Below, piece by piece: positions 22,785 to 53,685 of a stretch of 64,000 bases of DNA. The notes beneath the pieces were generated by a model. That model saw nothing but the letters and a program-made list of their open reading frames with translations, was not told the DNA's origin and made no database searches. The translations under genes and the position numbers were made by a program. Every line of letters begins with the position of its first letter. Within the stretch, counting starts at the first letter, position 1. The stretch lies in NCBI GenBank assembly GCA_951804945.1, contig OX638156.1, positions 40,672,001-40,736,000 of the forward strand, read 5' to 3'. This DNA is from Podarcis cretensis (taxonomy: Eukaryota).

Positions 22785-25700
22785 CTATGGTTCCCAATCC
22801 TCCTCCAGAAGCTGTATTTGGAACCCAGCTGTGTCCACCTCCACAGTGTGGATGCTGAAATTCCCCAGGCCCTGAAAGGAAGGCATGCAGGGTGAGTGAA
22901 ATCTTCACTACAAAATATTTAAATCAGAATATTTTGTTCTGCAGCCTGGTGGAACTTCAACACTACAAGGGGGTCGACTGCCACTCCTGACCTGACATCA
23001 GGCCTACATGCCCTAGAAGGTCACAGGCCAGTGCAGAGGCCACTGTTCTCTTTGGCCAGGAGGCTACATTCTAGCTCTGAAAAATTTGGTTTCTACACAC
23101 AGCCACATTCTACACACAGCCACATGTCTCCATCTGACCAAGCAAAGGGGCATCATCACAACAGAAGAGCTCAGCCAAAGCACTCAAAGATTATGCTAAG
23201 CAGTATTGGTGAGAAGTGTAGCCTTGGCAAGGGGTGTGGCCTAACCCTGGCCAGAATCTCAAGGGCCTGTTAGAGAGGCCTGGAGGGCCAAACTCAGCTC
23301 CCAAGTGTGAGGCTCCCCCTCCCTGCAACTACATGGTACCCACCCATCACTGAATTTCTCCTCTCCGAATTTCCTTGGGAGAGGGTGTGCATTAACCTGC
23401 TCCTGGACCCCAAACCTGCTTAAATTTCTGCAGGGGGACACCGATTGATAGGGACTTAGGAGTTGGCTCCACTCACCTCTGTTTCCATCAAGATCCTCTG
23501 CAAGGCCTCTTGGTTCCTGGGCTCTTTAGTTAAGACATAGAGAAAGCCACCTCCTCCAGCGCCAGCCATGCTCTGCCCATAAACATGAGGCTGGAGCACC
23601 TCCATCATGCGCCGGACAGCCAAAGGCTCACACCCAGGGGCCATATTCTTCTTCTGCAGCCAGTAATGATTCATACACTTGCCAAAGAGAGCCAGGTTGC
23701 CTGGGGTGAGAAGGAGGAGTTACAGGACACTCTGGCATTGAACAATTAGCCCATCTTAGAGCAAAGTTGCTAGGTCTCCTTTTCCTGTCAGATACAGCCA
23801 GACAGTGCTCTTGGCTCCAATCACATGGTGTGCATGTCAGCCTTCTTCCTTCTGGGGAAATCTGACACCTGGGCTGGGCTCCCCACCACAGAAGTGGGAA
23901 GATAGTAGCTCTGGCTGCTCTTCCCTGCTGCTTCTCTGCTGCTTTCAATCTAGCAAGAGGAGCGCTACAAGATCCAGCTAGATAGAATTGCTTTCCCCAA
24001 ACCAGTGAGTGCTGGCTGGGGCTGTTGGGGCTTGCCCTCCAGATGTTTTGGGCTACAGCAATTTGGGGAAGGCTAAAGTCCATGATGGGGATGCGGGTAG
24101 CGCTGTGGGTTAAACCACGGAGCCTAGGACTTGCCGATCGGAAGGTCGGCGGTTCGAATCCCCGCGACGGGGTGAGCTCCTGTTGTTCGGTCCCTGCTCC
24201 TGCCCACCTAGCAGTTCGAAAGCACCGCAAAGTGCAAGTAGATAAATAGGGACCGCTCCCCGGCGGGAAGGTAAACGGCGTTTCCGTGTGCTGCTCTGGC
24301 TCGCCAGAAGCGGCTTAGTCACGCTGGCCACGTGACCCGGAAGCTGTCTGCGGTGAGATGAGTGTGCAACCCCAGAGTCAGTCACGACTGGACCTGATGG
24401 TCAGGGGTACCTTTACCTTTACTTTTAAAGTCCATGATGACATCTTAAAAGATGCCCCCCTCCTACTCCCATTGGTTGTTGCCTGGGGTAATTGCTCTGA
24501 AGCACACATACGCACACAACTATCCTAGTAACTCCTGCAAAATGAGAGCCTGTTCAACACAGGAGATGGTTTCTGTGCAAGGTGTTTTGAGCAGAGGCGC
24601 TGTAGCCTCTGCCCTGGGTAATGAGCTGTACAAGATGCCCAATAAACAAACTGCAGTACCTTGCCGAAGGGCCTGGGCACACTCCTCTGCGTTGTTCACC
24701 AGCGCGCTGGCATTCTGCACAATGGTGGGTAGCCGGGCATACCAGTTCCTTAGAACATCCTGAAAGAAAAGGAAGCAATTAAAAACTGTCTCCGTTTCTG
24801 GTGCTCAAGAGTGCTTAGAGGAAGAAAGGCTTAGCAAATTCCTCCTCTACAACCACCCTCCTGCACCTTGGGGAAAGTGCCAGTGTAAAAATACTCTTTT
24901 TAACTTTGTGTTTTAATTGAGAGCCATCCTGGTGTCATTGGTTAGAACACTGGACTAGAACCTGAGAGACCAGGGTTCAAATCCCCACACGACCATGAAG
25001 CTCACTGAGTGACCTTGGGGGCCAGTCAGTGCCTCAGTCTAACCTACTTCACAGGGTTGTTAATGGAGATTAAATTGAGGAGGGAGAGAACCCTGTAGGC
25101 CACCTCAAGCTCCTTGGAGCTTGGCGTCTCCACCCCCATCATTCTGCCCGGACGCTGAGGTCCAGCGCCAAGGGCCTTCTGGCGGTTCCCTCATTGCGAG
25201 AAGCAAAGCTACAGGGAACCAGGCAGAGGGCCTTCTCGGTAGTGGCGCCCGCCCTGTGGAACACCCTTCCAGCAGATGTCAAAGCGATAAACAACTACCT
25301 GACATTCAGAAGACATCTTAAGGCAGCCCTGTTCAGGGAAGTTTTTAACGTGTGATATTTTAGTGTATTTTTGGTTTCTATGGAAGCCGCCCAGAGTGCC
25401 TGGGGAGGCCCAGCCAGATGGGCGGGGTATAAATAATAAATTATTATTATTGTTATTATTATTGGAGGAAAAGGTGGGATATAATTGAAATAAATAATAA
25501 AATAAATTGCATTTTACATGACCCTAGGACCTTAGGGTGAAGGGGGGGGTAATAAAACAATAAGAAAACTATTAATAAGAATGCATGCAACCCTACCAGG
25601 TGAGTCATCCTACCTGTGTAGACCAAAACTCAAGGGTGAAATGCATCATGCCAACAGCACAGGGAGAAAGGTACACCTGTTGTAGGACAGGTACAACTCT

Positions 25701-28700
25701 CTGCTCTAAGGTACGTCAGAGCTATGGACCTCAGGCCACAACTGGCACCTCCAAGCACCTTCCGTACCTGGAGCAGGTTGCGGGCCAGGCGGGTCTTGCC
25801 CGTGTACAGCAGGAGCAGGTGCTCATTCAGGGTGTTTATGAAGCCCTCTGGGACGGTGATTTGCTCCACTTCTACCTTTAGTGGCAGCTGAGGCTTTGAA
25901 CGCCCAATCTTGAGGCCTGGCACCAGCCCACCCACTTGGTCCTGCCACCCTCCACCTGCAAGGAACAAGAACAAGTGTTGAGGAAGAGATCCTGCTTGTT
26001 TACCAGTTGCCAGGTGAATCCCTTGTGGGAGGCAGGAGGGGTCTCTGATCCAATGGAGAGAAGACTTATCTATAGTTGGGAACCCTCTTCCTTTCTGAAG
26101 TAGTAAAATTGCTGATGTGGGAAAGGACAGAAGGACCCTGCTTTGGTTTAATCTGGTTTCAATTATTACACCATGTTTTTATAGTTTAAAAATGTATAAT
26201 CAGACATGATAAAGCATGGGATAGAATTCACATTATTAACATCACTTGAAGTCCTTTTGTTTGTCCAGGCCTGCAGAATGATGATGGCCATTTAATTATT
26301 GTATTTTGCTGTTGGTTTTATCCCGTTCTATGTTGTAAGCTATCCTGGGCACCCTTTGAGTAGGAACCGTGCCATGGAGAGGGGTTAATCAAAAGTGATT
26401 TCCCCCGTCAGATTGAGCACCTGTCAGATTGAGCACCTTTCCATGATGTCTCATCCTCGGCAATATTAGGAAGTACCGGTAGGTGTGAGAAGCAGAATAC
26501 CAAAAATAGATCCTTGCTTCAGCCAATAGAGATACACCCACATAGGTTTATTTGCATGTGAATGCTCTGCCCCAGTGGCAAAGCAGCACTGAATGTAATT
26601 ATCAAAAGAAAAGGACACTGAGAAACGGTAAAGACCCTCCTCCTATGCATCCCATTGCATATCAAAGAGATGCAAATGAGGATCCCCCTGCCTTCAACCT
26701 AGCCCTTCCCTTTGGCCTGAAAGGGCTGCTCTGCCTTCACCCTCACTCTCATGCATCCCACCCACTGCCATTTCCTCTTTGACCTAGAACCCTGTTTGCT
26801 TCTAATCACTTTTGGCCCCTCTCCACCTCTGGGCACAGGTCCAGATCACAACTCTGAAAAGCTGCCTCTGAAAAACTCTTTCATCGCACAAGAATCCTTT
26901 CATCACAAGGCTAGTTTTCCTGTCTTCCTAACAAGTCTGGGTCAGGCTGTTGGTGGGGGCTATGCCTTTTATTATGCACATTCCTTCAGGGCAAAGTCAA
27001 AAACACAGCCAAAGGGCAGAAGCTACTGGACTGGCCCAGTTGCTTGGAAGGCACCAGAATCCAGACTGGCGTAAGACCTGTTTATGTGTTACTCAAGTGG
27101 AGGGCAAAAGTCTGCAAAGCAAGAAGGAGGTCACTGACTTAGCTGCTTGGCAGAAGGGCAGGATATGACATTTTAAAAGGAGCAGCATAGAAGGAATAAA
27201 AACATTCATCCAATGAAACATACAGACATGGGAATCAGACGTGGCCAGAACTGTGGAGAAGAGGGAGCAGTTTTGTGCAAGCAACAGAAACACCCCAAAA
27301 TATTTTCTGGAAGAAAACAGCCAACAGCACCTTTGAAATCACAACAGTCAAATGAACTGGAGAGATTCCAGCCAAGTCTTGATCACAGAATTGTAGAGCT
27401 GGAAGGGACCCACAAGGATAATCTCGTTCAACCCCCTGCAATGCAGGAATCTTTTACCCAACATGGGGCTTGAATACACAGCCCTGAGATTAAGACTGTC
27501 ATGCTGTACCGACTGAGCTACCAAGGCAGATGAAGAAATGCCTTCGAGGCCCTGCTAATGCTATATTTGAGGCTAACTTCAAGAAAAGGAGGGCGAGATG
27601 GCACTGAGTTAGACATCTCCCTTTCTGCAGTTTTTTGGTTTCTTTGGCATGTGCAGCAGAACAAATAAAAGGTCTTACCTGTGGTGAGAACCTGCTCCAA
27701 ATGCAGCACGGCATGGATGAGGGACTCAACACTGGTGGAGTGCCCAGATGCCTGGTATAAAGAAGCCATCACAGCCCCAGCCAGGATGCTGCTGGTGCCT
27801 ATAGGAGAGGGCAAGTGAGCACAACATGGCTAGCGGGGTGTGTGTGTGTGTGGAGGCCTACCAGTTTTTTTCTTTGTCACTGGAGCCCTATGCCACCCTT
27901 TGGATTCCACAGTACCAGACCAGAACCTTGTCATGAGAAGGGCCAGACTAGGTCAGACCAAAGGCCTCCCTAGCCATGTAGATGCCTCTGAGAAGCCCTA
28001 CAACAGCCATCTCCAGCTGTTGCTCCCTGGTAGCTGGTACTAATCAATGGCAGAGTGCCTGGAAACTGGAGGTTCCATACACCTAACATCTCATATTCTA
28101 CTTCTATTTCTGTTCTTCTGCAGCCGAAAGAGCAACAGTGGCAAACAAGAGGGAGGTTTGGAAAACTCAAGGGAAGGAGCACAAGGTCTGCAGAAGTATA
28201 TAAAAACCACAACACACACTAGCTGTAAAGTAACATAACATGATATGTAATAAAACTGTAATTTTAATCATCATATCAAAAAGCACAGTTCCTGATGGCA
28301 ATGCATCATATCTTCTATATATATTGGAATAGTCCAAGGATTGTCAAGTCCAAAGATTACAATGCAGTTCCTGCTGGCAATGTAATGGCATTGCCAACAG
28401 GAACTGCATTGTAATCTTTGGACTTGACAATCCTTGGACTTTACGATACCAATATATATAGAAGATATGTTGCCATCAGGAACTGTGCTTTTTGATATGA
28501 CAATTAAAATTACAGTTTTATTACATATCACGTTATGTTATTTTACAGCTAGTTACGTGGGTGTTGTGTTCAAAAGGTGGTTCACGTAATGAAGCAATAG
28601 TGGTGTTTGTTGAAGTATATAAAAAAGCACTGAAGTTGAATGGAGGAAAGGAAAGAGAGGTGGATGGGGTTCTCATCTCATGCCTTTGGGGCAGGGCAGG

Positions 28701-31700
28701 ATACACGAGGCCCCTCCAACGTCAACAAGAGAAATGCTGCCAGAGTAGACCTGAGGTCTTTGCTAGGTCCCCTTGAGCAATTCCAGGCATGCACGTAGAG
28801 AGGTTGGAGGCATACCCAGTCCTGATCCGTGAGGAAGACGTGACCAGGTGCGGAGTTCAAAGCCGCCTCCAAAGTGTTCCATCAGTTGCTCCCGCAAGGA
28901 ATTCTGAGAAGCAAGGTCCACAATCTGGGTGCAAATCAAGGCTGCTTTCAACAAAGCTCCTAAGAAGAAGAAAAAAGACGGGGGTGGAAGCCAGGACAGC
29001 CCCTTTCTGTCCCACAGTGGAAAGAAATGAGACCTGGACTCGGGATGGGGCTGGCGGGGTTGCAGTTAGGATCTGAACTCGGGAGTGGAGTGGGAATGCA
29101 ATGAAACCTAACAGGCCATAGTGGGGAGATCAGGCAGGGGAGCATTGCAGAGAAACAGGCCTCATTCCAAAGCATTGTGAACTAGCAGGTGAGTAGCTGG
29201 TCCTGAGGCCCATTAAAAGAGGAGCAAGAGGCTGGCTACTCTCAGGCCTCCGACAGACATGTGAAAACAAAAGGCACATTTTATAGCAGATGCAGCTGCC
29301 TAGAATCATAGGAAGCTGCCTTATAACAAGTCAAACCTTGGGTCCATTTAGCTCAGTATTGTCTACACTGACAGGCGGCAGTTCTCCAGGATTTCAGGCA
29401 GTCTAAGCTAGAGATGCTGCAGGGGATTGAACCAGGAACCTTCTGCATTCAAAACAGCTATTCTACCACTGAGCTACAGCCCAGCCAGTACAGGGCTCCC
29501 TACTGACACCTGATATGCCTCTCACAGGGTTTCCTCACAGCAAGCAAGGAAGCTGCTTTGGTACAGTTGCTCCCTTCCCGCTGCAGGAAAAGGGGCTCTT
29601 ACCGGGTGCATGAGGCTGGCAGTAATCCCGCAGGTCTTCCAGGTCTCTGCAGACCAGCTCCACCACCATCTCTCCCTCCAGCCTCCCGCTGCGGCTAACG
29701 AGCCGCAGCTCTGGCTCGGCAATGCGCTGGGTCTGTGCACCAATGGGCCTGTGCCCATCCACCAGGACGGCCAGGTCCACCACTGCGCCTCCGTGTTCAT
29801 AGGTGATGGGAGGGGTGTCGCTCCAGCCACCTGCAAAAATTAGCCCAAAGGGGGTCAGGTAAGAAACCGCACAGCCTCCTGCCCAACCACCCACCCAAGC
29901 CCATAACCAAAGAGTGGGACTCTCCCCAGGAGACCTTGCAGTGCTGCAAAGGATGCTGGATGCTGCTTGCACCCAACTCATCTTCTGTGCCCTTGCATGA
30001 GACCCTGCACATCATGCTTCAGCTCCTCAGTGAGCCCAGGGCTTGCTTCTGCCTTGCAGGGAAAGGATCCCCCGGCACTCAAGGCAGGAGCCAAATGTCA
30101 CTCACAGCCCCTTCCCTATCAAATCCCCCCTGCACTGTCCTACACAAGCTCCCTCCCTCCATTCAAGACCGCACTGAGTCATGTTCTGTGGAGCAGAAGG
30201 ACAAGGGCCCCTGCCAAGCCTCCCCAGGCTTGCCAGCTTGGCCCTCTGGGCACAAGGCACCTGGGGTCGAAAGAGGCAAGCGGCTACCTGGCTCCAGAAA
30301 GGGCAACTTGACAAGCCCAGGCCCAGCAGCCACTTACCAGAGAGGTCTATTCTGGCTGGGCAGGCTGCTCTCAGCCAGCGGCCCATGGGAGGCAGCGTGG
30401 CCAGCCTGAGGCTGATGAACTGGCAGGAGGACATCACAGCCTGGCGGACGAGGATCTGCTCGGCACCCTCATAGTGTCGAGCAGCGCGGACCAGGAGGAC
30501 AGGCCTGCAAGGAAGGAGAAAAGGGTGTCTCTGGTTGCTTGGGCTGCTTCTGCCAACAGCCTTCTCCAACTGGGTACCCTGCAGTGGTCCAATACTTCCA
30601 TCAGCATGAGATGCTGTGAGTCAGCATGGTCATAGATTATGCGGGGACTGATGAGAGTTGTAGTCCTAGGCTGGCGAAGGCTGCTTGATTGGCCAAGGGC
30701 TTTTCCGTCTCAGTTGTGTTTGCCCACACAGAGGCCATCCTGAAGGAAACTCTCCTTCCCATTTTTTCAGTGGGGTGAGTTCCACTCAGAGGCATTCCAG
30801 GACAGAGGCAGCTCTCTCATGCAGGCCCCCAGATTCTTCTCCCATCCTCTGTCTGCCACCACAGGCTTGCTCTGGAGGGCCACTTGTGAGCCTCTGTCCC
30901 TTACACAACGCCAAAGGCCCCCATGGGCCCAGGCATCTGCTCTGCAATACCCCATGGACATCAGAAGCAGAATTGAACCCTTGGTCTATGTAGCCCAGTC
31001 TCTGCCTGGCAGCAGCTCTCCAGCACCTTGGCAGAGGAGGGTCCCATACAAGCAGCGTTTTATTTGTATGCCCCCTTTCCATAGTTAAAACCATGCTCAA
31101 AGCAGCTTACAACATGAAAAACATACTTAATTAGAAATATAACGAAAGCAGCCATAAACAGTAAATAGAACACATCAGAAGCTGCACAACCAATTTAACA
31201 ATTCCCACATTAAATCATAATGAGATATAAAAATAAATATACATAAAATTATTATCAATAACAGTAACAACTGCCCCCGCCCCCCAACAACATCCCAGCC
31301 CAAGAGCCTGTTCAAGAGCCTCAGCTTTTGTAGCTGGAGTCAGTCAGGGACCTGCCCAACCAGGCCAGGTGGAAAAAGGCCTCCCATCACCTGATGCCAA
31401 GATTTGAGCTTGGCTCAGGTGCTTTGCCACTGCACACCTGCCCTTCCCCTGGGGCCTCGGAAGACAAGGCCAGCCCACCTGGAGCAGCTGAAAGGGGGAC
31501 ACACTGAGCATGTTCCTTCCTTCCATGCTCCCGGTGAGTGCAGGAAACAGCATGGCCTTGAGCAGTGATGGCAAAGTTTTCCTGGTCATGTGCAGACTGA
31601 GCTTTGCACAGAGAACTTGCCTTTGCCAGGCAGATGGACAGGTGGTGCCAGCGGGAATACAGCTTTATCACTACACACACACAAACACACGCTTGCAGTA

Positions 31701-34700
31701 CCTGTCCAGCCACTTCTTCCTCTCCTTGGCCAGCTCCTTGACACCCTCAGGGATGTCCCCCTTCTCCAGGTGCTGGAAGGCCTGGGCCCAAGCTGTGTTG
31801 GCTGCCGGGCCACTCCGTAAGCCCCCTTCCCCTTTGGCCAGGCAGCCCAGGAGGTCAGCAATGCAAGCCAGGGATCGAGCAGCAACGCCAGGGTCTTTGG
31901 CCATGGAGGCAACTAGGAGGCAAACAAGAAGTGGCCTCAGAGCCTGAAAAGTGGCTCTTTGGCTTGAAACTGGGCTGGTCCTGGGAATGGCTACACCTGG
32001 GAACATTGGGAGGTTTTAATGGATGTCAAAATGGTCTGCAAGAGCTCCCCAGAGCCAGTGGTCCATGGGCGGGCTGGGAGGAACCGTCTCCACAAAGCCT
32101 GTGTGGATTCACAATGCAAGTATCCCTGGAGCCAGGAAGAGTGGAGGGGAAAGAACCCTTTCACCCACATGGGCAAGGCCAGTCTGCCATCTTTGAAAAC
32201 AGCCAGGCTGGGCAATGGCGGAGCTGCTCACTGAGGCGCTGGTGGGTAGAGCTGCCAGACTCCCAGGGAACTCTGGGAATAGCTGAAGCAGAGGTGCCTG
32301 TTTCCCCAGACTGGGGGAAAGGCAATCCAGCAGCGGCCATAAGGAACCAAGGTGGAATTCTCACCCAGCCGTGGGCAGGAATTGGGTAGGAGCCCCCCAC
32401 TTACTTACTTACTTCCAGTCCCATATATAGGCACCCTGCAATTAAATGGGCAAAATGCTGCCCCAGACACACAAACACACACACCCTGCCAGTATGTCTC
32501 ACCCTGGTCCAGTGTCTCCAGCATCGCCTTGTGGTAGCCCTCCAGGGCTGCGGAATGGATCAGCGGTAGGAGGCTGCAGTTGCTGTGTTCCATCAGGACC
32601 CTCTTGGTCTTGCTCTGGGCCTGCAAGAAGAAGGTGGCCCTGCGGGCAGCCAGCTCCGCCTCCTGGTCCAGGCTCCCCTTCAGCTCCTCCCAGGACATGC
32701 GCCAGGAAGTCCGCCAGCGCTGCAGCTGCTCAGCCCCTGGAGGAGAAAGAAGGGAGCCCAAGAGCCAGAGGACGTCCCCGACTCCCAGGGGCTCGGAGGC
32801 ATGCAGCACGGGGAACAGGCGGGCATTCAGCAGGCAGCGGCGGTTGGAAGGGGTGTCTGGGCTCCAAAGGTCATGACTCCTGGGCAGGGCAGGGATGGTG
32901 GCACGTCAGTCACTACCACCCAGCAAAGCATGGAAAAGCAGCCTCAACCCCACAAGGAAGGAAGGTGGCAGCCCCCAGCCAGCCCTTCCTGCTACAAGGC
33001 CACAAACCAGTAAAGTCCTCCACTGCAAATGATGAACAAAAAGGCTGCTTTGTCCCTCATTTTTAACGGGACTGTAAGGATCAAAAATCCAAACTTGCAA
33101 CACAGATTGTACATTGAATATGAAATACACCCTGAAAGTGTCTCTTGAATGAGTATCAGTTGTACAAATTGAAATCTTGTCTTAATTAGTTAATGATGAG
33201 CCCCAGCACCTAGAGCACGTGTCCAAGGAGGCATTTTTAATTTATAAAGGTAAAGGTAAAGGGACCCCTGACAATTAAGTCCAGTCACAAACGACTCTGG
33301 GGTTGCAGCGCTCATCTCGCTTTAAAGGCCAAATGAGCCGGCGTTTTTCCGCTTCTGCAGACAGTTTTCCCGGGTCATGTGGCCAGCATGACTAAGCTGC
33401 TTCTGGTAGAACCAGAGCAGTGCACGGAAACGCCGTTTACCCTTCCCGCTGGAGCAGTACCTGTTTATCTACTTGCACTGTGTGCCTTCGAACTGCTAGG
33501 TTGGCAGGAGCTGAGACTGAACAATGGGAGCTCACCCCGTCGCTGGGATTCTAACTGCCGACCTTTTGATCGGCAAGTCCAAGCGGCACAGTGGTTTTTT
33601 GTTGTACTTTTCATACACTGCTCAGGGGCAATTGTAGATAAATAAAATAAATGGAGGCAGAGCAGCAGCTCCACAGCACGGGGTGGGGGTGGGGTGGCTG
33701 ATGTGTGGGGCCCTCAAGAGAATGGGCTGGGACCTGCACACGTACCGTATTCCAGTGCGGAGGAAAAACTCACGCCAGGGCATGTTCAGGTAGGTGCCGC
33801 CTTCTTCTGCCACACTCTAAAGAGAGAAGAGGGCAGGTGTGAGCGTCTCAGAGAAGGAGGAATAACCAAGAGAATAGAGGCGGGGTGGGATGGGGCAGAC
33901 TGTTCTGGGGTTCTTGAGGTCACCTGCCTCAAGACAAACTGCTCTCTGAAAGAAGAAGCAGAGTTGCTGTGGGGAGTGGGATTCCCCAGAGACCTGCAAG
34001 GTGCCTCCAACCTGTACAGGCTCCTTCCTCCCAGGCCAAGCAGACTCCTGTTACACACCTGCCAATCATCATGATGCCCACTCAGGGTGAAGACCTTGCA
34101 AGAGATCCCTCTCAGCCTGACAATGTGTCCCTGGACAACCACGTCCCGAAGCAGGTAGCTCCTGAGGGCCACGGAGGATGTCATGTCCAGCCCAGTGAGG
34201 AGGCAGCCAGTGTGGATCTCCAAAGGACCCTGGAGAAAAAGACCAAGGGGACTCGGGCATTTGTGACACACACTCAGCTCTCCTGCTGCTGCAGGGAGTC
34301 CACACAGAGCTTGTTCTTTGGGTCTCTAAGTTAGCAGGACAGCTGGGAGAGAGGGGAGACTGTTTGCCCGCTGCCCAAGGGCAAAGCCCACCTGGAGAAA
34401 GCAGGCCTGAGATCCTGGCTCAAGGTTGCTGCAGCCAAGTCACCCTGTCTGCTTGCGTGTCAGGCAACTAGCTGGCTGGGGAGAGTTGAACTCTCAAAGC
34501 AAACGAGGGTAGGCAAAACACCAACAGCTCTGGCTCCCTGCAGCCTGTTTACAGCATTTCTGCCCCCCTCCTTCCCTCCAAGGAGCTTGAGGTGACGGAT
34601 GTGGTTCTCCACCCCTTCAGTTTATCCTCAGAGCTGCCCAGTCAGGTAGGTCTGGTTGAGAGGCCGTGACTGGGCCACGGCCACCCAGTGAGCTTCAGGG

Positions 34701-37700
34701 CTGAGTGGGAGATTCAAACCCTGGTCTCCCAAGTCCTAGTTCAACCATCTTAACCCCTACACCATACTGAACCTTGGGTCCTTGTCCTCCTCATATCATC
34801 TCCTGCCCTGGGCCTGATGCTACCAAACCTTAAGGCTTGGCTTTAAATACCATCTCTGGGATTGGTTCCTGTTCCAAATCCACCAAAGATGACCCTGTGT
34901 TGCCAGAGAGAGAACTTCTGGCGCTCAACAGAGAACAAGGGCAGTTGCCAAACTTCTTACTCCCATCCCCAGCATGGCCCACCTTCAAGCGGCAGTGCTG
35001 GATCACGCTCCCAGGCCCCACTTTCACTGCTCCCTCCAAGAGGCTGTTGGTGACAGAGCAGCCCTCAGCCAGCAGCTGAGGCTCCTGCATGGGAAGAAAG
35101 AGAAGGAGGGGTCATGGTGAGGCAGGGAAGTCCAGGCAGTCTTGGTAGACTCTGCCTACATAAGCTGCTAGTCCTTATGGGTGGGGAGCAAAACATGCAA
35201 TCAAGTGGGGCAGCATCAGGTGAAATGGAAGGCCCAGAGTAGAGCTTAGCAGAAGCAACTGCCCCATATGAGCCCCATAGCAGCTCTTTGCCCCTTCCCC
35301 TTTGGCAACAGCTGCTCCTTATGTCCTCAGTTTGTGCCAACACCTTCTAAATTACAAGAAACCAGAATTTTGGAATCTTAATTATGGAAAGTTGTCTCAT
35401 CAGCAGAATGCACATAGACTTCAGCTTCACCCAGTTGCATAGCTCCCCTGCTGCCCCGCCCTGCCAAGCACACACACAACTGTGCTGCAGAGAAGGGCTG
35501 CTGGGGTGGCGTGAGGGACCCTCCCACCAAAACAAGGCACTCAAGAGCCTCTGAGGCATCCCCCAACCAGGGGTTGTACTCACAGCCACATGGGAATGTG
35601 CCACTTTGCGGAAGGACCTGCTGCGGGCATTGCCTGGGTGGGGCGTGAGGTGGCGGATGTGGTCGCTGGCAGACATGGTCATGTAGTCATAGCAACCCTC
35701 AGGGATGTACGCTGTGGAGAGGGAGGAGCCAGAGGCCACAATTGGCACCTAAGAGGGTATCCCACACCAACAAGCCTCCAAAGGCCTCGAGAAGGAAGGT
35801 CAAAAGAGGGAAGCCAGAAACGTGTTATGTAGCCAGCTCAAGTCCTGCACAGAGTAGACCCACTGAAATCAATAGACACAGCTGACTCTGGTGTGCTGTG
35901 AGTAGAACTTAGCTGCCTATACAAGCCAATGTGTTTTGTCTGCCCCAGGGCTCAGGATGGCAGCCCCTCTCCTGCCTCCTGCCACAGGAAAACAGCCTCC
36001 CACCACTATAGAGCAGGAGATGGAGAGATATGCAAGCTTGTTTCCCTGGAGGCAGATATCAGGATTTTGTGTGCAGTGTGCCCCTTGCCTCCCCGCTGGG
36101 TACCCTTGCCCACACCCTAGGACAGAAAGCAATGTGTTGCCCCAGAAAAGCAGCATCGCCAAATGGTGGAAGGGAGGCCGATTTCACCAACCAGATGTTT
36201 TTGACAACTCGCATCAGCCCCAGCATTGTATAGCTGTGCTAGCTACAGCCGATGGGTCAAAGTTCAAAACATCTCGAGGGCACCAAGCATCAGGCTGGAG
36301 AGGCTGGCTGGCATTGGACGAAGCAAGTTCACAACCTCACCCATCGTGAGAGGCACGGCATGGAGAGCTTTCCACAGCACGGAACGGGCACTTCTCTCTG
36401 ACCCTGCCTCCTGGACATTGTCGCCACTGCCCATCCCTGGTCTCTGACCCTTCACAAAGGCCTCTTCGCTGACTCCCTGGGCCATGCAGAGCAGGATGTC
36501 GAAGAAGAGAGAGAGCTGGCATGAGGGAAGAACAAGGAGGGGGCGAATGAGTCTTCTGGACAGGGAAAGATCTGGCTCCACAAGGAGACACCCAAGCAAA
36601 GCATTTGCACATCATGACAAGTGGAGGGACAGTTTCCAAGCTGTGCAATGGACTGACTGGAAGAACAAATGGGGTGGGTGGGAGAGATTGAAGGAACACT
36701 GTCTCAAGTTAAAAGCTACCCAGAGAGGCTTGTGGAGATCTGCAAGGAAGCAGGCTTAAGAGCATAAGGAAAGCCTGCAGGATCAGGTCGGTGGACCATC
36801 TCATCCAGCCTCCTGCTCTCACAGTGGCCAGCCAGATGATTGGGAGAAACCCACAAGCAGGAACCGAGCACCAACAAACTTAAAGTAGCATGGGGACAGG
36901 CAAAGGAGGACACCTTCACCCCAGTGTGGCTCCCCTTTATCACATATAGAGGCCAAGAAGATAATGACCTATCCAACCCAACAACATATGAATCAATATG
37001 ACTAATCTGACCCGACGACCCCATTCTCACGAATAGAAGCAAATAACATTGCAATCAGCCGAGCTCTGATAGAGGACCGAAGCACATGATGCTGACACAA
37101 ACACCCTGTACAAACATTACGAAACAGAAAATCATTATCCCTACCGTCTCTCCCTGCCCCATCTCTCTCTCCTCTCTCTTTTCTCCCAACTGCATAATGC
37201 AGATAACAACAGTGTTTCATACCGAATGCAAACAAACTGTGGTAAAGACTCTTATGAATTGAAAGTGGAGACACTATATGTCCTTTTTTTGTTTATTTGC
37301 TTGTTTGTTACACAAGAAAATCTTTAATAAAAAACTTTTTTTTTTAAGAGCACATTTCTCTCCTGCGGTTTCTAGCAACTGGTATTCAGAAGGGTTCTAA
37401 CTCCGATGGTTGAGGCAGAGAATAGCCATCATGGCTAGTAGCGGAGGATCTCTGGGCTCACACGAAAGCTCACTCACTGTTCCGCAAAGTGCAGAAAGAG
37501 GGAAGCTGTGCAAGCTCCAGCGGTCTCTGTATTAGGGAGGTGTTATTTCCCCCCCCCCAAAAAAAGGGTATTGCATACAGAAAAGGAGAGGAGAGAGAGA
37601 GGGAAGGGGCTTCTCAAATTGCTCCCCCCAAAAAAAACAAACCATTTATTATAGTTGTTAATGCCCATTGAGAGGTGGAATAGCTGCTTCAGGGGGAAAC

Positions 37701-40700
37701 AGTTTTGCCGGAACACTGAATACTGTTTAGGCTGCTTCCTCCTTGGCCAAAGGCAGCCTCACTTGTATAAGTCACAAGAATAGGGAGGGAGGGAAGCCAT
37801 TCTTCCACCACACAAACACACACACCTGCAAAAAGCTACCAGGATTCAGGAGTAGAAAGAAATGATGGGGGAAGACCACAAACAATTATTATTACAGACT
37901 GCATCATGGCATAAATTCCATCGAATACAAAATGAAAGCAGAACAAGATGCAGACACAAATCTCTGAGAACAATAAGAAGATCACTTAAACAAACTCAGA
38001 TCTTCCACACACACGCTAAAGAAAACATTTCATCAGGTACAAAATTGATCTTCCACAAATGGTAAGGTTACACCTCAGGGAAAGCCTTCCTCTAAACAAG
38101 AACGACTTCCATAAGCACTTAAACGTCATCTCAGGGGGTGCCTGACTGTTTTTGGTTGGGAATTGATTCCAGAGAGCTTATGCTGCAATACTAAAAGCCT
38201 GGTTTCTAATGCAGGCTAAGGACACCTCTGGGGCTGGCAGTACTCTGGGGCTGCAGTTGCAGGGCAGCCATCTATGGTGCAAGGCAGCTCTTTGACCCTT
38301 GAGATATGAAGAAAATGCTTTTGTGACAGATTATGCAATAAAGCCCTCTCGGGGTCAGATCATGATGTCCTTGGCAGCTTGAGGCATTCTTCCCGATGCC
38401 CAAGAAACCATCACTGCAATCGGAACGCTAAAGCCAGCCCAGCCTCAATGCCACCTGCCTCCTCATAGGGGAAGATGGGGAGCGGGCAACACAACTGCAG
38501 CTCTGTTATAGCATATTTTGGTGCACATGGGCATCCCAACATTTTGCAGCTGGAGCACTATGCTTCCAAAAAAAACCCAGCAGGAAGAGGTAACTCAAAT
38601 GGAGAAGAATTCACCATGGCAGGGAAGCCTTGAAGGGCTTGCAAAGCTGCAATAGGACCTAAGAACACTAGTGTGCCCACAATCCTCACAGCACTGCTTC
38701 CTGCAATAGCTGTTACTGTGAAGAAGTGGAGGGGGGAGCACATTCTCCCAACAACTCAATGCTGCAGTTGGAGAACAGGGGAAATGCTTTGCCCAGGAGA
38801 AGATGTGCTAGGAGGTGGTGTTGGGGACATCCTCTGGATCACTTGCATTGACTGGAGGCAGCAGCCCATTCTGGGCTTGGGAAGACCCCAGTTGGTGCCC
38901 TCCAGGTGCTGGCTGCAGATGGCGGGAGCTGTATTCCAAGAGGATGCCATGTCAGCTGCCCCCCAGCTTGACTTGGCAACTCTTAACACAATCTTCAAGA
39001 GCACTTTGACCTCAAACTCAGGTTGTACTGGCCTTTTGAAGGCTGACTCAATGGGCCCAAAGCCCCACAGCTTACTCACCTGGCCTTCACCCTGCGACCA
39101 TCCATTGTGGGGGTCGCTGGCCAGGGGCTTGCTGCCGGCCACTCAGGACTTCCCCCAGACCAGCTGCATTCACACCTGGGCAGATTCATCTGCAGCCACC
39201 CAGGTGATTTCCTCTTCCCTAACCTGCCTCTTCTTAAGGGCCTCACCTGGATGGCGGGGGCTCCTGAGTCCAGCCCCAGGTAGGTGCAGGCATCAAGGGG
39301 TGGGATGACATGGGTGGCCAGAAGCTGCTCCGCTGCTTCAGAGGAGAAGAAGACAACCCCACACACCTGCAGGGGTAATAAGAAGCTCAGCTTTTCTAGG
39401 GTTTTCAGCCCTGCAGACTAGTGAGATTTCAAGAGTTTTAGGCAGATGGTTCTGCAGCAGGCTTGCCCCGCAACTAAGGGCTTGCCCACACTTAATTTTT
39501 GCCCTGCACTTTCTAGCCACAGGTCCATGCTTCCCCCCCACCCCCAATTTTCACAGGAAAACCAGCTCTTTGATGCAGAATCAGAATACATAGCAATTTG
39601 GGTTTCCACAGATTGCCATTTGTTCTGGTTCAGTCTACCTCTGAATACCAGATGATGGGGAATAACAATGGGAAATGTGAAGTTTCACTCGGGTCCTGCT
39701 TGGGGGCTTCCTTTCCTTGGGGGCATCTGGTTGGCTATGGTGAGAATGTCGGGTCGGCCGGGGGCATGAATGACCCCCAGGCAAATGACAGGAACGTTTC
39801 CAGCTTGTCCCTCCCATCAGCATGCAGCTCTAGGGGGTTCCGACAGCCTTCCCCGACAATTTATAGTGACTCATGTCTTGGAGACATTGAGCACACATCC
39901 AGAAACTCAACAGAGAATAGGATGCTGCACTAGATGGGTCTGATCCAGCTGCAGGGCTCTTCTTGTGACTCCAGCCCAGGCCCAGAACTCACCAGTGGGA
40001 CCTTCCCGTCTGGCCCCACACACTGCCGGATTTGGTCTTCAGGGCTTTGGTAGAAGATGTCTTGCACCACCCCCTGGAGGGACAAGGATGAGCAGAGTTA
40101 CCCCAAGGAGCATCAACAGCTAATGCACTTGGGCAGCAATTATCTGTGAGAGGAGGGCCTAACTAGACACGGTGCTAATCACTTTGTTGGCTTTTTAATT
40201 TTTTATTTTTCTCTGACATCATAGCCCGGAGACTGATGCTTTCACCCTTTGTCTCCTCCACAGTCCTGATCTGGCCTGCATCTGCCAAACCACATCTACA
40301 GTATCTGCCCTGGAAGGAAAGATACACAACTATGTCTTCTTACAGGACCCATGAAAGTAGTGGGGCAAGTGAGGAGAGGCATCTTCAGATGCTGCTGGGT
40401 TTGTAGCTCCCATCAGACCCCGCAAGCAGCATGGCTAATGGCCAGGGGAGATGGGAGTGTGAGTCTAGCAATGCCTGGAGGAAAGCAAGCAGCCCAGGAG
40501 AACGATGCCATCAAAGGAAAAAACACCCAAAAGAACTCTGGGCCTGAAACTTGTTGTCCATTACTTTTGGGAATTGTAGAGGCTTTCCAGCCCGAGTGCC
40601 AAAAGGGTCAGCCAGAATGCTCCTCTGCCTGTCCCAGGCAGGGGGTTATAGGGGAAACTGGGTGGCTGCTGGAAGAGGCCTTGGGCGAGGTACCTGAGTG

Positions 40701-43036
40701 TCAGCAAGGTAGACTCCATGCTGCCTGGCATAGGAGATGCTCCCGGGCACAGCAATGACTCTCACCCCCTGGAATCCATGCCAGTCGATCTCTGGGAGGG
40801 GAGGGGAGGCGTCAAGCTTTACATCAGATTTGGCAAGTCTTGCCCATAGAGGAACACCCACCCACAACCTCCCAAAATAGATATCAAAATTAAAGGAACA
40901 CCTCAAAATGAATCAGGGGAGGAGAAAGAAGGCACTTTTCAGCTATTCCTCAGGACGTAACCTCTTCCGGCTTGCAAAGAACCACCACTCTCTCCCAGCC
41001 AGTCCTTGAGGCCTCCCATACACCTCACCTGTCATGGTTGGGACTGTGAGAAGCATATCTGTGCTGGAAACCCAGACCCCTGGGGGGGAGCCTCTGCACA
41101 CCTGGAAATGGAGGCAAGGAGGAGGAATTTGAGCCTGTAGGAGCAGGAGCAGCACCTCTGAGCCCCTGCAGGGCATGGTGGGGGTTGGCAGGGAGAGGAG
41201 GTGAGTGGAAGGCTTGCCCACAATCTCAGCAGGGCCAGGGCAAAGCCCACCAAGGCACTGAAACAGGACGGCCTGCAAGGATCCGCCCCACTGACCTGGT
41301 GCATCAGGGTTGCAAGGAGGCTGTCCAGGTTGCAGGTGAGTGCCTCAGTGGGGGCCGCAGGCTCCTCCATGGGGAGGCAGGTGAATGCTCGACTGCAGTC
41401 ATCGAATAGGAAGTCCCGGCCCTGGCAAGAAGGAAAGCAGAATAGCAGAGCAGCAGAGGGAGCAGGCCGAAGGCACAGCCTCCAAGTACTTCGGCTGAGG
41501 ATTAGGAGCAGGTCGTCCCACCCAAGAGGAGGGAAGTCTCCTGCTGTGGAAGCTCTTATCCTTGGTGCCTGACTAGAAATAGGCACCGCCCTCTTGCTTT
41601 TCTGAGGATCGCACCCAAGCATGGTCAGTGCAACCCCACCACAGAGCTCACCATGTGCAGAATGAGGATCCAGGCCTTTTGCAAGACATCAGATGTGACC
41701 ACCTGGAAGGAACATCAGACAGGGGTCTCTTAGATTAGGAAATACAGTGGTCTGGAAGCTGAGAGACAAAAGAGGTGCCATGAGCAGGGCAGAGGAGGCA
41801 GAAGGAGGCAGCCTGGGGTCAGGGATCCTAGGAGTCCATTCTAATTACTGCTTTCATAAATGTCTACATCTTCTATTAGTTTGATTTTTAAAAAATTAAA
41901 GAGAAATAAATAAATGTCATAAATGCATAGAGAAGGGGTGTTGGCACTTAGCTGGCCACTGTGAGAACAGGATGCTGGGCTAGGATGGGGCCTCGGCCTG
42001 ATGCAGTGCTGTGATGGTACCAGGGCAGATATCACAACATTGCCCTCCCATACCTGCTCAGTCAATAGGTGCCCTTAGACATGAGGGTGGGGGGATTCGG
42101 CTGGTGGAGGTCAGTTGGCACTTGTTTTCTCCCTTGCTCACCGTGTAGCCTGCTCGAGCGCTCAAGTGCTCAGCTGCCACCAGGAGCGCATTGAGAGTGG
42201 CTCCTCCACTGCCAACCTGGCCCTTGGGGTCTTCAACTGTGAGCAGGATGGGCTGTCGCCCCAAGGAGCTCCGATCCCTGCGGATCTCCAGCTCTGGAAG
42301 CCAAATGAATAGAGACTCAGTTAGTAAACACAGGTCACAGCATAGAGAGGGCGAAGGAAGAAGGATCCCTGCAGCTTGTGAGAAGCCCTGGAGGTAGGAG
42401 TGGAAGGGTCAGTGGCTCCCAGGTTGGTCCCAGCCTTTCCTGCATCCCTCAGTCCTGCCAGCCCTTGTCTGATGCTGGTCCAGCCACGCCTGCAGGTGGG
42501 TTCCCAAATACTAAAAGGTTTCACGGTGACCGAGGACATTGCTTGGGCTTGCTTTTGGTTAGGCAACAGAATATTAAAAGCTCATAATTAGCTGCTAAGC
42601 CTGCCACCTCCCCAAAGACATCAAATCTAGCCTAAAGGGCGAGAATAGCAGTTAAAGGATTGTCTAAGATCAACAAGATGTCGTCAGTGAAAAAATTAAT
42701 ACCATACTGCCAACTCATTTTAAAAAACCCCATAGTGCTCTACAACAAAATCATGAAAGCATAATGAAATTACAAAATCATAAAATAGCTCTGGATTTTC
42801 AACAAAGGGTTGAGTGAGGTGGCCTACAAGCTCCACTCCAACTTCGTTGTTCTGAGTCCCACCCCACCCCCCTCATTTTTAATTCAGCTCCAGCCCTAAC
42901 CTTGCCCTGCAATGTGTTGGCTCGGATCCCTGTGTGTACAGGAAGGCCTCCACTCACCTTTTTGGAAGGCAAAGACACTGTCCTTGTGCTGACATGTCAA
43001 AACGATGACGGTCCAGTCCACCTCTCCTCCAGCCAT
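22785..43036 (-). CDS. FCSK: L-fucose kinase, complete, 23 coding exons, ~1090 aa
   Basis: Exons 43036-42958, 42293-42142, 41702-41652, 41421-41296, 41101-41029, 40791-40694, 40073-39993, 39366-39247, 36515-36341, 35711-35584, 35084-34983, 34229-34059, 33816-33746, 32879-32503, 31912-31702, 30504-30338, 29830-29603, 28959-28816, 27798-27679, 25955-25768, 24759-24660, 23700-23477, 22871-22785. Total 3273 nt, in frame. Motifs: [22 protein letters not shown], and the GHMP kinase motifs [41 protein letters not shown]. Confidence 0.96.
24088..24425 (+). mobile_element. Sauria (POM-type) SINE
   Basis: tRNA-like head with B box GGTTCGAATCC and (ACCTTT)n tail. 14-bp TSD TAAAGTCCATGATG at 24074-24087 and 24426-24439. 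Has an internal deletion of ~30 nt relative to the copy at 33246. Confidence 0.9.
24925..25505 (+). mobile_element. tRNA-derived CORE/MIR-like squamate SINE, split by an L2 insertion
   Basis: A/B box head (TGGTGTCATTGGTTAGA...GGTTCAAATCC). The body resumes after 25467 as GAAAAGGTGGGATATAA plus an A-rich tail. Same family in reverse at 34555-34770 and 44520-44730. Confidence 0.75.
25120..25461 (+). mobile_element. 5'-truncated L2-type LINE
   Basis: Encodes [17 protein letters not shown]...[10 protein letters not shown], then a 3' stem-loop and (TTA)n tail. TSD TTGGAG at 25114-25119 and 25462-25467. Confidence 0.85.
27382..27527 (-). mobile_element. SINE with tRNA-Lys(CTT)-derived head and CR1-type tail
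   Basis: 27527-27455 aligns without gaps to vertebrate tRNA-Lys-CTT (about 59/73, from memory; anticodon 27494-27492). It is followed directly by GATTCCTGCATTGCAGGGGGTTG...GGTCCCTTCCAGCTCTACAATTCTGTGAT, the CR1 tail also seen at 61510-61592. Confidence 0.8.
28207..28611. repeat. Long inverted repeat (hairpin) insertion flanked by 14-bp direct repeats
   Basis: Arms 28218-28382 and 28389-28553 with a 6-nt loop. GAAGTATATAAAAA at 28193-28206 and 28612-28625. Confidence 0.9.
29302..29482 (-). mobile_element. tRNA-derived squamate SINE (Squam2-like)
   Basis: Minus strand begins GGGCTGTAGCTCAGTGGTAGAA...GGTTCAATCCC. Degenerate relatives near 9520-9620, 22300-22470, 47790-47880 and 50720-50830. 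Confidence 0.65.
33246..33597 (-). mobile_element. Sauria SINE
   Basis: (AAAGGT)n tail on the + strand; body matches the copy at 24088-24425 in reverse. Confidence 0.88.
34555..34770 (-). mobile_element. tRNA-derived CORE/MIR-like squamate SINE
   Basis: Reverse-complement similarity to 24925-25119 and its tail. Confidence 0.7.
36872..37345 (+). mobile_element. 5'-truncated L1/Tx1-type 3' end nested in a minus-strand CR1 tail (36757-37440)
   Basis: Reads [24 protein letters not shown] (an FxxxWxPF-type ORF2 end), then a UTR and AATAAAAAA. Host CR1 tail sequence is present on both sides. Confidence 0.55.
39747..39912. mobile_element. 166-bp solo-LTR-like insertion inside a CR1 tail
   Basis: TGTCGGG...CTCAACA ends, with 5-bp TSD GAGAA at 39742-39746 and 39913-39917. 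Removing it restores the CR1 tail GGTGAGAATAGGATGCTG. Confidence 0.7.
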
Positions 43037-46616: not shown

Positions 46617-47381
46617 TGAAATGAGCCAAACGCTTTTCCCGCCTGTGGCCTGCCACTCTTCTTAGTTAATCAGCAAAGTCAGAGTTATGATTGACGACGA
46701 GCGCGTTGTTCTGACACCAGGGAAAATAATCCCCGGAGTCTTAAAAGCGGTCGTTTCCTCCTCCCATTTAGTGTGCTTTCCCTACATCCTCCTCATTTTC
46801 TAGCCCTTGGAATCTCCACCGTTTCCACTGCCTTTACTCCCAGGCAGCAATACTGTATGCATTTTTCTTCTCAGAAAAGTGGTCCCTAAAAGGCTTCTTC
46901 TGAGATCAGGTAATCTCTAAAGAAAGTCATTTTCTGCAAATACTACGACATAGTATGTGCAGGCGGATGTTAAAGAGAAAGCCCCTCTCTCCCCCGCCCC
47001 CTCTACAAACATGAAAACATCTTAGGCACATTTCCTGGTGTGTTGCAGCTGAACACCAGGCACTCATTAAGAATTTACTGTATTGTTAGCTTGCAGCACC
47101 ATAATATATGTCTATTCAAAAGAAAGTCTATTTGTGTTTAAGAGGGTTTACTCCCAGGTAGGCGAGTATAAGATGACAGCCTAGGTTTTGGTTTAGGTTG
47201 GCGCTAGGGAAAACCGGGGTTTTGTTTTGTTTTGTTTTGTACCTCAAACAGTTGCATGGCAGGCAGAATTTCAACAGGTTAAGACTTTTCTGTTATTAAA
47301 AAGCCTCACTATGATTGTACTTGTTCTAATTTTGTGTTATGCTCTGTTCCCCTCCTGGCAGCCATCCCTGTGCCTTGAGTA

Positions 47382-47744
47382 AAGGTAAAGGTAAAGGTAC
47401 CCCTGCCCATACGGGCCAGTCTTGACAGACTCTGGGGTTGTGCGCCCATCTCACTTAAGAGGCCAGGGGCCAGCGCTGTCCGGAGACACTTCCGGGTCAC
47501 GTGGCCAGCGTGACATCGCTGCTCTGGCGAGCCAGAGCCACACACGGAAACGCCGTTTACCTTCCCGCTGGTAAGCGGTCCCTATTTATCTACTTGCACC
47601 CGGAGGTGCTTTCGAACTGCTAGGTTGGCAGGCGCTGGGACCGAGCAGCGGGAGCGCACCCCGCCGCAGGGATTCGAACCGCCAACCTTTCGATCGGCAA
47701 GTCCTAGGCGCTGAGGCTTTAACCCACAGCGCCACCTGCGTCCC
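47382..47744 (-). mobile_element. Full-length Sauria SINE
   Basis: (AAAGGT)3 tail and B box. Direct repeat TCCCTGTGCCTTGAGTA at 47365-47381 and 47741-47757 (TSD of at least 13 bp). CpGs retained. Confidence 0.92.
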
Positions 47745-50600: not shown

Positions 50601-53443
50601 GCATTCGGTTGCTTCTGGGCATGTGCAGAGTGGACTGCCTGCCGCAGCTGAGAGCAGTCAGAGGCACCACCTCTCTCGTTGTTTTGTGTTGGTGCCCAAG
50701 AGTTTGATTGCTTCCTGAGGGCACTTCAGTGGCAGAGAGTACTGGAGCGGAAGACCCCGGGTCCAGCCCCGGAAGAGCTGCTGCCAGTCCGTGTAGGCAG
50801 TACAGGACAAGATGGATCTGACGGCAGCCTTCCCCAACTACCTGCCTAACAGATGTTTTGGGCTGCGCTTGACCCCAGCATCCTACAGCTGTGCTGGGTG
50901 AGAGGAGTTTCAGTCAGAAACATCTGGAGGGCACCAGAATGGGGCTCCACCCACCCCACCTCATTCTCTGTTCCCAGCAATGGTCAGACAGGAGTCTCAA
51001 AGAGAAGCCCCACAAACAGGACATGATGGCAACATTGCATGCCCCCAGCACCTGCTGTCCAGATGTAGACTGCCTCTGGATGTAGAGGTTGCATTTAACT
51101 GTGATGTTAGACAAACCTACAGAGGGAAGGCCTACGTCAGTGGCAATCATTGCCCCTTGAGGTGAGGGGGTGACCATAAGCTGATGGTTTGTTTTGCGTG
51201 TCTGAATGGACTTTTATCCTTACTTAACAATCTCTGTCAGTAAACTTCATTGCATGTCCCTGAGGCATAGTTTTTAAAAGAGCTCCGACTTCTTAACTGT
51301 GTGACGTCCTATGTATCAAATTTTTGCATCTTGATACAGAGCACTACCGAAACCTGTGTTTCAGGTCAGCCTTCTAAATGAGCCCACAAAAGTCTCTAGT
51401 CTGCTAAGAGCCTGCCCTGGAGGATTCTCCCCTGTCTAGTAAGCAGACTGGGGGAGGAGGGAGGGAGAGCTCATTCTGCTGCCCTTGAGCCATTAGGCCA
51501 ACCCATTTGCTTTCTGTGCTGGTAGCCACAAGGGAACTGACTTTCCTTCACAGCTCAGCACAGGAAGCAAGTGAGGTTGGATCTGCTCCTCCGCTAGCCT
51601 GTTGTTGTGTTTCTGTTTTGGCTTCCCTCTCCTCTGTGTCTACAACAAAAACCAAGCCATGCAGTGATCTCTCTCCCCGCCAGCCCACTCACTTGCCAGC
51701 ATGGAATTCCTTGTTGCCTATAGTGACTAGGCTTGCTATTTAAAGCTGGTTCCGATGGGTTTCTCTCTCCAGCATTTTGCACAGTGAAGAAGGATAGAAA
51801 GAGTTGACACAGCTTCTCCCTGCAATTTCTGCTCTCCAGCAGCCCTTTGCCATCATGGCCCTGGCTGCCTTCCATTTCCTGAGGTATTTAAATTGGTTGT
51901 CTTTATGCCTTTAGGAAATAACACTTCAAATGTCTTCATTTGCTGTTTGCAGTATGCACTTGTCTGCTCAGGGTTTGTGTTCCTTTTTGTTTTCATCCAG
52001 GGGCAATATGCTTTGCACTCCCTGCCCCCATTCTTATGACTTCCATAACCCCAGGCAGAGTTGCAGTTGACTGTCAGTAGATGCAGTAGAATGGCAGCTT
52101 GTATATTTTTTAATTTGCACCTTCTTGTATTGCACTATTGCACAAATATTTCATTCCCCCCCCCAAAGGCTTTGCATGTTAGTTAAAGACCAGTTTAAAA
52201 GTGAGTGGATGAAGCATATCTAATCCATGATAATATTATTAATGTTCACTTAAAACCAACACTGAATTATTTGATGAAGAGGATCTTAAATCAAATGAAT
52301 ATATAGACAAAATGCTTCATTATGCAGTATGCTGAATTCTTGTTCCTCTGTGATACATACTATCTGAGCCTCTGCTATAGTCGTTTCAAAAGAACCTCCA
52401 AGTTTCTTTAATGGATTTTAATTCTTCCATGTAACATCTCTTTTACAGATCCTTCATTGTTGAGTAATTCTCTCTCCTGAAATTAAATACGACTTGAGTA
52501 AGATTTTCTAGATATTCTTTCACTTGCAGACATGTTGAATTTGATCATGCTGTGCTTGCTACTGCTCCCAGAAAGTTTTTCCTGTGCTGTCACTTAACAG
52601 TTTCCTGTAGTGCTCCATGATTCTGATTTCCTAAATGGATATTGAGGAAAACCAAGGAAAGGGTTAATGAATTTAGGAGGGTCCAGGGAGAGCGACATGT
52701 GGCTGGAGACCTTTAAATTCTCAGGTTTTTCCAGGATGCCAAATTCTGTGCCAGACAGCAGGTTCTGTGACTGCCCCGGAGCTGCATCGGATAGCACCCA
52801 ATAAGTTGGTTGGAGTCAAAGCTGTGAGGCAACTGCATCCTAATCTCTGAGCATAGTTTATGTGATGCTTCTGTGATGGATGTGGGCCCAGAACAGAAGT
52901 GCTTAGTGAAGGAAACACTTCTGTGCCCATTGCTGCTTTTAAAACAGCACAGTATAAAATATTCTTTTATTGACATATCTGCACTGTTGGCATAGCCTCC
53001 CACTTGTTGTGTTTGTGTGGCATGGTGTGCTTTGCAAAGAGTTGGGGGTCCAACTTTGTCGAGTTTCTCAGACTGCAGGTTCAAGGATTGGGCTGGAAGG
53101 GTTTTAATGAAAAAATATTAGCACCCAGTTGGCTCCCATCTTAGACTCAGGAGCCAGTTCAGACTTGCAGTTGAAAATAGGCAAGTTGATGAGCACACGT
53201 GTTTTAGTTTGTGGGCAATGCAACACACATCATGTTACCAAAACCCCTGCAGTCACTGCATGATAAAATCTGCAAGATCCCAAGCACAAAAGCGTACATG
53301 GCAGAGTAACAAGCCTGGTGGTTTCTTTTAATTAAAATCCTGGTTGAAACCTACTGTTACAAGATGTAAAAGGCAAAGACATTTTAGAGAGTGTGAGAAA
53401 AGTTATTGTGTAACACCAAGCTGGCTGTTGCTCCATCAATATA

Positions 53444-53685
53444 CAGTGGTACCTCGGGTTAAGTACTTAATTCGTTCCGGAGGTCCGTACTTAACCTGAA
53501 ACTGTTCTTAACCTGAAGCACCACTTTAGCTAATGGGGCCTCCTGCTGCTGCCGTGCTGCTGGAGCCCCATTTCTGTTCTCATCCTGAAGCAAAGTTCTT
53601 TACCGGAAGCACTATTTCTGGGTTAGCGGAGCCTTTAACCTGAAGTGTCTGTAACCTGAAGCATATGTAACCTGAGGTACCACTG
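53444..53685. mobile_element. Tc1/mariner (Tigger/pogo-like) MITE
   Basis: TIRs CAGTGGTACCTC / GAGGTACCACTG, TA TSD on both sides, internal TAACCTGAA repeats. Confidence 0.9.

Follow-up and report, generated by a model that had tools for sequence, protein, structure and literature searches.

A near-perfect hairpin in a lizard intron as a probable Penelope-type insertion of two truncated ends

The 405-nt palindromic insert described here (28207–28611 of the window, by which is meant the whole 64,000-nucleotide stretch of the Podarcis cretensis assembly that was analysed) consists, with a probability of about 0.85, of two 5'-truncated 3' ends of one dispersed family, standing back to back and left by a single event as an inert relic of the Penelope-like element (PLE) type. 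That PLE machinery produced it can be held with greater confidence still. The insert is most likely an ordinary dead-end insertion of this type and not a new kind of element, and the window copy looks special solely because the truncation points of its two arms differ by 9 nt.

The insert lies between two copies of a 14-mer, GAAGTATATAAAAA, at 28193–28206 and 28612–28625, which are 405 nt apart and occur nowhere else in the 64-kb window, as the sequence-only reading had proposed for a flanking duplication. Arms at 28218–28382 and 28389–28553 base-pair around the loop TAATGG (28383–28388), with looser pairing beyond them out to 28207; alignment and folding bear this out, and the DNA hairpin folds at −176.9 kcal/mol (z −29.7), a value equalled by none of 100 shuffles. 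Pairwise alignment of arm against arm gives six substitutions, one of them within an indel patch, and two indels of 5 nt each, such that the original estimate of about five substitutions and two small indel patches holds outside the patch and falls short in the total. The overhang of some 45 nt reported on the right side is real and measures 43 unpaired nt. Poly(A) and ORF are both absent from the window copy. The features are as follows, the sense orientation being set by a hammerhead-like motif that longer family members carry ~160 nt further upstream.

27680–27798, minus strand: host exon downstream of the intron
28816–28959, minus strand: host exon upstream of the intron, start of the GHMP kinase motif
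28193–28206, plus strand: left target-site duplication, 14 bp
28207–28382, minus strand: inverted arm, a 5'-truncated family 3' end that ends at the tail-less point
28286–28303, no strand: internal repeat copy (partner 28365–28382; mirrors 28391–28406 and 28470–28485)
28380–28382, no strand: ATG microhomology at the junction, common to both arms
28380–28611, plus strand: sense arm, a 5'-truncated 3' end of the family
28383–28388, no strand: 6-nt loop, counted within the sense arm
28569–28611, plus strand: 43-nt tail, confined to the sense arm
28612–28625, plus strand: right target-site duplication, 14 bp

The loop is assigned to the sense arm because five of its six letters match the parent sequence. 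The internal repeat seen earlier within each arm was found again with its mirrored copies and is, to judge from the family sequence, inherited from the parent. Three clustered bases at 28303–28307 bring the left arm closer to the apex internal repeat than the family sequence is, and may reflect short ectopic conversion or chance. Elsewhere in the window, two 216-nt sequences 1.6 kb apart (53442–53657 and 55236–55451) are inverted relative to each other and 91% identical, and further dispersed repeats lie at 24088–24427, 33245–33597 and 47380–47744.

Perfect-looking palindromes can arise as sequencing artefacts, and among the contigs listed for the four sequencing runs searched, no single one covers the entire insert together with both flanks. 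A fold-back assembly artefact is nonetheless vanishingly improbable. Both junctions are carried by contigs of all four runs (two studies; organisms A, B and C, under three species labels): contigs entering from the unique left flank reach 41 nt into the insert, and others cross from the insert into the unique right flank. The apex is crossed by one contig (28344–28413) with zero differences and 28 letters on its shorter side, and independent mutations separate the two arms. The check on assembly that had been named at the outset thus comes out in favour of a real hairpin, resting on independent contigs over both junctions. No joint that skips the insert, as an empty site would give, was found in the four runs from these organisms, all of which carry the insertion.

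The insert sits in a minus-strand intron of 1,017 nt (27799–28815, bounds read from sequence contexts), 204 nt from the splice donor at 28815, which agrees with the distance of about 200 nt first given. Joining the two flanking exons forms a GHMP-kinase motif, and six collinear matches to PF07959, each under the cut-off, lie upstream in the gene (window 32801–41418); these matches support a fucose-kinase-like host, while single-exon checks are weak (Pfam E 0.041; PDB fucokinase E 0.78). The earlier assignment to a fucose kinase gene stands at the level of collinear sub-threshold matches, and the name FCSK is that of the sequence-only reading.

The sequence-only reading put the hairpin forward as a Dicer/ADAR substrate and a possible DNA cruciform, and fucose kinase pre-mRNA might have recruited it as a regulatory duplex that acts on editing, small RNA or splicing. 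A predicted duplex of −263.7 kcal/mol on the host strand, the nearby donor and the presence of the insert in runs of three species labels would be in keeping with such recruitment, which we nevertheless regard as quite unlikely. In the family alignment the arms differ by 6.1%, inside the range of 4.1–10% seen against eight other copies; both carry private changes, including private deletions in each, with one shared change, and one CpG has decayed oppositely in the two. Folding of the minus strand is favoured over that of the plus strand by just 6 kcal/mol. If the indel patch is set aside, four of five substitutions become G–U pairs on the minus strand, which the sequence-only reading had rightly called too few to be significant (p = 0.19), and a G–U bias was accordingly rejected. 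Homogenisation of the arms was rejected as well; their divergence is that of unrelated copies. Arm divergence at this level suggests neutral decay, with no sign of selection on the hairpin.

The identity of the insert emerges from its relatives. A search of the same genome with one arm gave at least 50 matches; 40 of 64 candidates were scored, which makes the counts lower bounds. The loci from the searches resolve into 46 non-redundant sites, matches without a locus being omitted. Mapped on a longer copy, the 3' ends of the family cluster at two points ~43–45 nt apart, and the 5' ends are ragged; the right arm of the window is the family 3' end with the tail, and on the left a tail-less copy stands inverted. 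At 22 of the 46 sites two copies stand back to back with both 3' ends outward, and duplications of 12–19 bp bound 17 of these 22 (16 by script, together with L160, where a 14-bp duplication appears once the right boundary is shifted on re-reading), answering in the affirmative whether other copies are palindromic with long duplications. In a control of 300 random position pairs, seven reach 10 nt and one reaches 12 nt. A duplication was not found at five inverted sites (L011, L023, L024, L050 and L067) or at most single-arm sites, and many of the sites lacking one, inverted or single-arm, carry later insertions or exceed the fetched flank. Exactly one tail is present at 20 of the 22 inverted sites, none at two (L025 and L050, each with a shortened arm) and two at no site. 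Where both sides end at the standard points, one tail is present in 14 of 14 cases (p 6e-5 if the ends were independent at 0.5). Of seven additional loci, three are inverted and end at the standard points; each of the three has one tail, and two have a duplication.

The long AT-rich duplication had been taken as a pointer to target-primed retrotransposition. The target-primed reading gains support, and the length of the duplication is indeed a family trait; its composition is not, the duplications of the 17 sites being 56% A+T, whereby an AT-rich target preference was rejected for the family and the AT-rich target at the window site is a local matter. The suggestion of an undescribed palindromic element finds no support: other copies have arms of unequal and variable length, a single arm, or a direct tandem arrangement, and hence what moves is not the palindrome itself. 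What gains support from the tail, ends and duplications of the family is the other proposal, a Penelope-like inverted retro-insertion. A literature search gave no description of the family, which may nonetheless be catalogued in a repeat library.

Two other routes to inverted arms can be set against these data. A foldback DNA transposon or MITE has an identical terminus at both ends and a fixed duplication length, and long inverted arms with internal repeats, in an insert devoid of ORF and poly(A), would fit an element with long terminal inverted repeats. The ends, however, are unlike, differing by the tail at 20 of the 22 inverted sites; duplication length varies from 12 to 19 bp; a single-arm copy (L015) and a direct tandem (L118) bear duplications of their own; and the ragged inner ends resemble 5' truncations. 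On the asymmetry of the ends this candidate was rejected as very improbable. L1 twin-priming inversion leaves a poly(A) tail and inverted segments that do not overlap; here poly(A) is absent and both arms cover the same sequence, and it too was rejected.

For the family as a whole, priming from both target nicks is slightly favoured over fold-back as the way in which PLE machinery paired the ends; for the window copy the preference is less certain. A PLE reverse transcriptase–endonuclease acting in trans would nick the two strands ~14 bp apart, and each 3' end would prime cDNA on element RNA, one at the tail start site and one at the tail-less site; both cDNAs would stop early and be joined by microhomology, and fill-in would yield the target duplication. 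In the window copy both would have halted 9 nt apart, which would account for the near-perfect hairpin. The arms there overlap by 3 nt, ATG, at the junction, and their starting points on the parent differ by 9 nt; elsewhere junctions have 0–6-nt overlaps or short inserts, at offsets of up to ~500 nt that are mostly tens to hundreds of bases. By script the tail lies on the longer arm at eight sites and on the shorter arm at 11, several of them with later insertions. Clean examples exist of both, L001, L003, L007, L042 and L065 for the long arm and L002, L020, L023, L062 and L142 for the short, and a short arm that bears the tail could not have been copied from a tail-less long arm. The strictness with which tails come one to an insertion points to priming at both nicks of the target. 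Together with the short-arm tails, the cutting and extension of both strands from two start sites reported in PMC11167929 for PAc, a Poseidon element of Anolis carolinensis, make two-nick priming the simplest account.

Several points weigh on the other side. No ORF-bearing relative emerged from the searches of this genome, so that the mobilising element is deduced from layout; the hammerhead-like motif has no cleavage site where one would usually follow GAAA; the family tail of 43–45 nt slightly exceeds the 30–40 nt given in print; and the 9-nt offset would be a coincidence if the arms were truncated independently. Moreover, fold-back self-priming on ATG/CAT accounts for the window junction equally well. 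Under this alternative, which shares the PLE origin and is a possible if less probable account, a truncated cDNA or antisense RNA would have primed on itself to give the inverted arm, one tail being trimmed later by the endonuclease. The parent carries ATG, 6 nt and CAT exactly at the window apex, the internal junction of L026 shows the same 9-nt offset, and the two window arms have one derived change in common. Self-priming is, moreover, the reading given for such insertions in PMC3846280, and PMC8557442 proposes tail formation through endonuclease resolution. The five or more clean sites with the tail on the shorter arm speak against it, as do the large offsets of most junctions, and fold-back on cDNA still linked to the target would be expected to enter the flank and leave no clean duplication. 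The alternative would still hold if the hairpin first arose as free DNA and was then trimmed at one end or the other.

Among 33 matches that include the tail, three (L118, L159 and L160) run through it into the same sequence. In L118, on C19, a copy that is truncated and has the tail runs straight on into the remainder of the unit; a 4.3-kb L1, flanked by a 17-bp duplication of its own, interrupts the locus, and the whole is bounded by a 14-bp duplication. The parent unit reconstructed from this one locus is about 1,215 nt long, 33% G+C, with a longest stop-free stretch of 90 codons. L159 and L160 enter the same 110 nt past the tail, and L042 and L046 hold the inner part of the unit. The stretch that L159 and L160 share stops ~110 nt beyond the tail, at points that differ by a few bases (L159 1622 and L160 1617); what follows in L160 is a short segment ending at the tail-less end. 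Within the unit, ~210 nt are present twice (L118 5801–5593 and 1174–950; G000:C19, minus), the duplication being old and its two copies 68% identical. The nested L1 carries, close to its 3' end, two tandem copies of a 516-nt segment (2166–1651 and 2680–2165) that are 99.6% identical. A pair of matches 7 kb apart (C2:17414663/17421912), considered as a full-length element, proved to be two separate copies with a LINE between them.

In the search for a parental ORF, an upstream walk stopped at the unit's own start, a GIY-YIG search gave one unrelated young family, and ribozyme-pattern searches gave family copies only (11 of 11 matches). The parent family is probably non-autonomous. An autonomous EN+ PLE, with reverse transcriptase and GIY-YIG in a single ORF, was rejected for the window family, the window copy having no ORF and the unit at most 90 stop-free codons; searched against the genome's PLE proteins, the family gave no match.

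The hammerhead-like motif lies ~160 nt upstream of the window truncation point and is thus missing from the window copy. Dimer-cleaving variants of the PLE hammerhead have reportedly been described. No site with two ribozyme motifs occurs among the 11 exact matches, the sole tandem having a truncated first unit, and a non-LTR retrozyme, built of tandem units that each carry a type I hammerhead, was rejected on this ground. In longer copies the motif has a CUGAAGA core, an extra A before stem II, a G–C-closed stem II and GAAA. The features that Cervera and De la Pena list for PLE ribozymes include the extra base before stem II, the G–C closing pair and palindromic 15.2–16.2 positions; the motif is without the last of these and without a U–H cleavage site after GAAA. 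Rfam gave no hammerhead model match among 15 loci, and its miRNA matches, far under threshold, reflect the hairpin. The predicted fold pairs CCUUGU with ACAAGG. In L164 (G000:C2:108459505–108459538, minus) and ten other copies, a 6-bp stem flanks the core and GUC stands one base before CUGAAGA. The motif may be a permuted hammerhead with a 6-bp helix III, a GUC site and no helix I, a form that may, if the predicted pairing is right, mirror the known minimal hammerheads lacking helix III.

The GIY-YIG search, in which 150 of 753 candidates were scored and 30 of the resulting loci used, gave the young family at least 150 matches. This family encodes reverse transcriptase (RVT_1) and GIY-YIG in one ORF with a cysteine-rich linker, and is called Neptune-type here from that linker as portrayed in PMC8557442, not from a tree. 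Its open frames reach 948 aa and its sequence suggests that it is likely still active. Among the loci taken, all eight inverted sites have one tail, with duplications of 12–16 bp. At L110, L111 and L113 (G000:C3:63.05 Mb, C2:71.85 Mb and C2:95.85 Mb) the inverted arms are 99.6–100% identical. Both families show one tail per inverted insertion and the ribozyme core sequence CTGAAGAA upstream of the 3' end, a comparison of ends that covered one PLE family of this genome. Unlike the window family, the Neptune-type family has a tail of ~34–41 nt that holds the ORF start, a canonical minimal hammerhead, and near-identical copies, which mark it as the younger of the two. A search for homology between them gave a best blastn E of 0.09 and a best tblastn E of ~0.04, on the antisense strand; with no meaningful sequence in common, it is layout and not homology that ties the window family to PLE machinery.

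Similar layouts are on record. PMC3846280 and PMC8557442, on complex insertions, describe, for the EN+ PLEs Pen2 and Pen2a of Adineta vaga, inverted 5'-truncated pLTRs with a one-sided 30–40-bp tail and 8–10-bp duplications, and the legend of Fig. 2 in PMC8557442 gives a PLE insertion scheme. Back-to-back 3' ends, a one-ended tail, a partial tandem, a palindromic short-overlap junction and a target duplication are common to Pen2/Pen2a as portrayed there and to the window family, which differs in having no ORF in any copy examined, a tail of 43–45 nt, duplications of 12–19 bp and, in the window, a pair of only 405 bp. PAc, likened here by its description in PMC11167929, is likewise a PLE of a lizard whose tail is bounded by two internal points at which reverse transcription starts, and its enzyme is predicted to be a dimer; PAc differs in being autonomous, with its ORF start in the ribozyme and an AT-rich cut preference, against the 56% A+T noted above. 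It is tempting, if doubtful, to see the family as a 1.2-kb non-coding PLE parasite on which a dimeric enzyme would use both nicks with a different start site at each, always giving one tail, no matter which arm is longer. Among the open-access papers listed, none combined pLTRs with twin priming. The family further resembles the non-LTR retrozymes outlined in bioRxiv 10.64898/2026.07.22.740005 and non-autonomous PLE derivatives (the non-autonomous Chlamys of PMC8557442) in being non-coding, in carrying a hammerhead or hammerhead-like motif and in being likely moved by PLE proteins. Retrozyme units as given in that preprint measure 51–972 bp, whereas the window family has a 1.2-kb unit, no two-ribozyme tandem among its copies and truncated inverted pairs.

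Overall, the window locus itself is ordinary, and its use lies in adding one observation to a pattern that runs through the family. A single tail on the long or the short arm, together with 12–19-bp duplications, recurs in two families of this genome that are unrelated to each other, and this constrains the open question of how PLEs make their inverted ends and tails. Stumps of this kind are also easily mis-annotated as MITEs or microRNA precursors.
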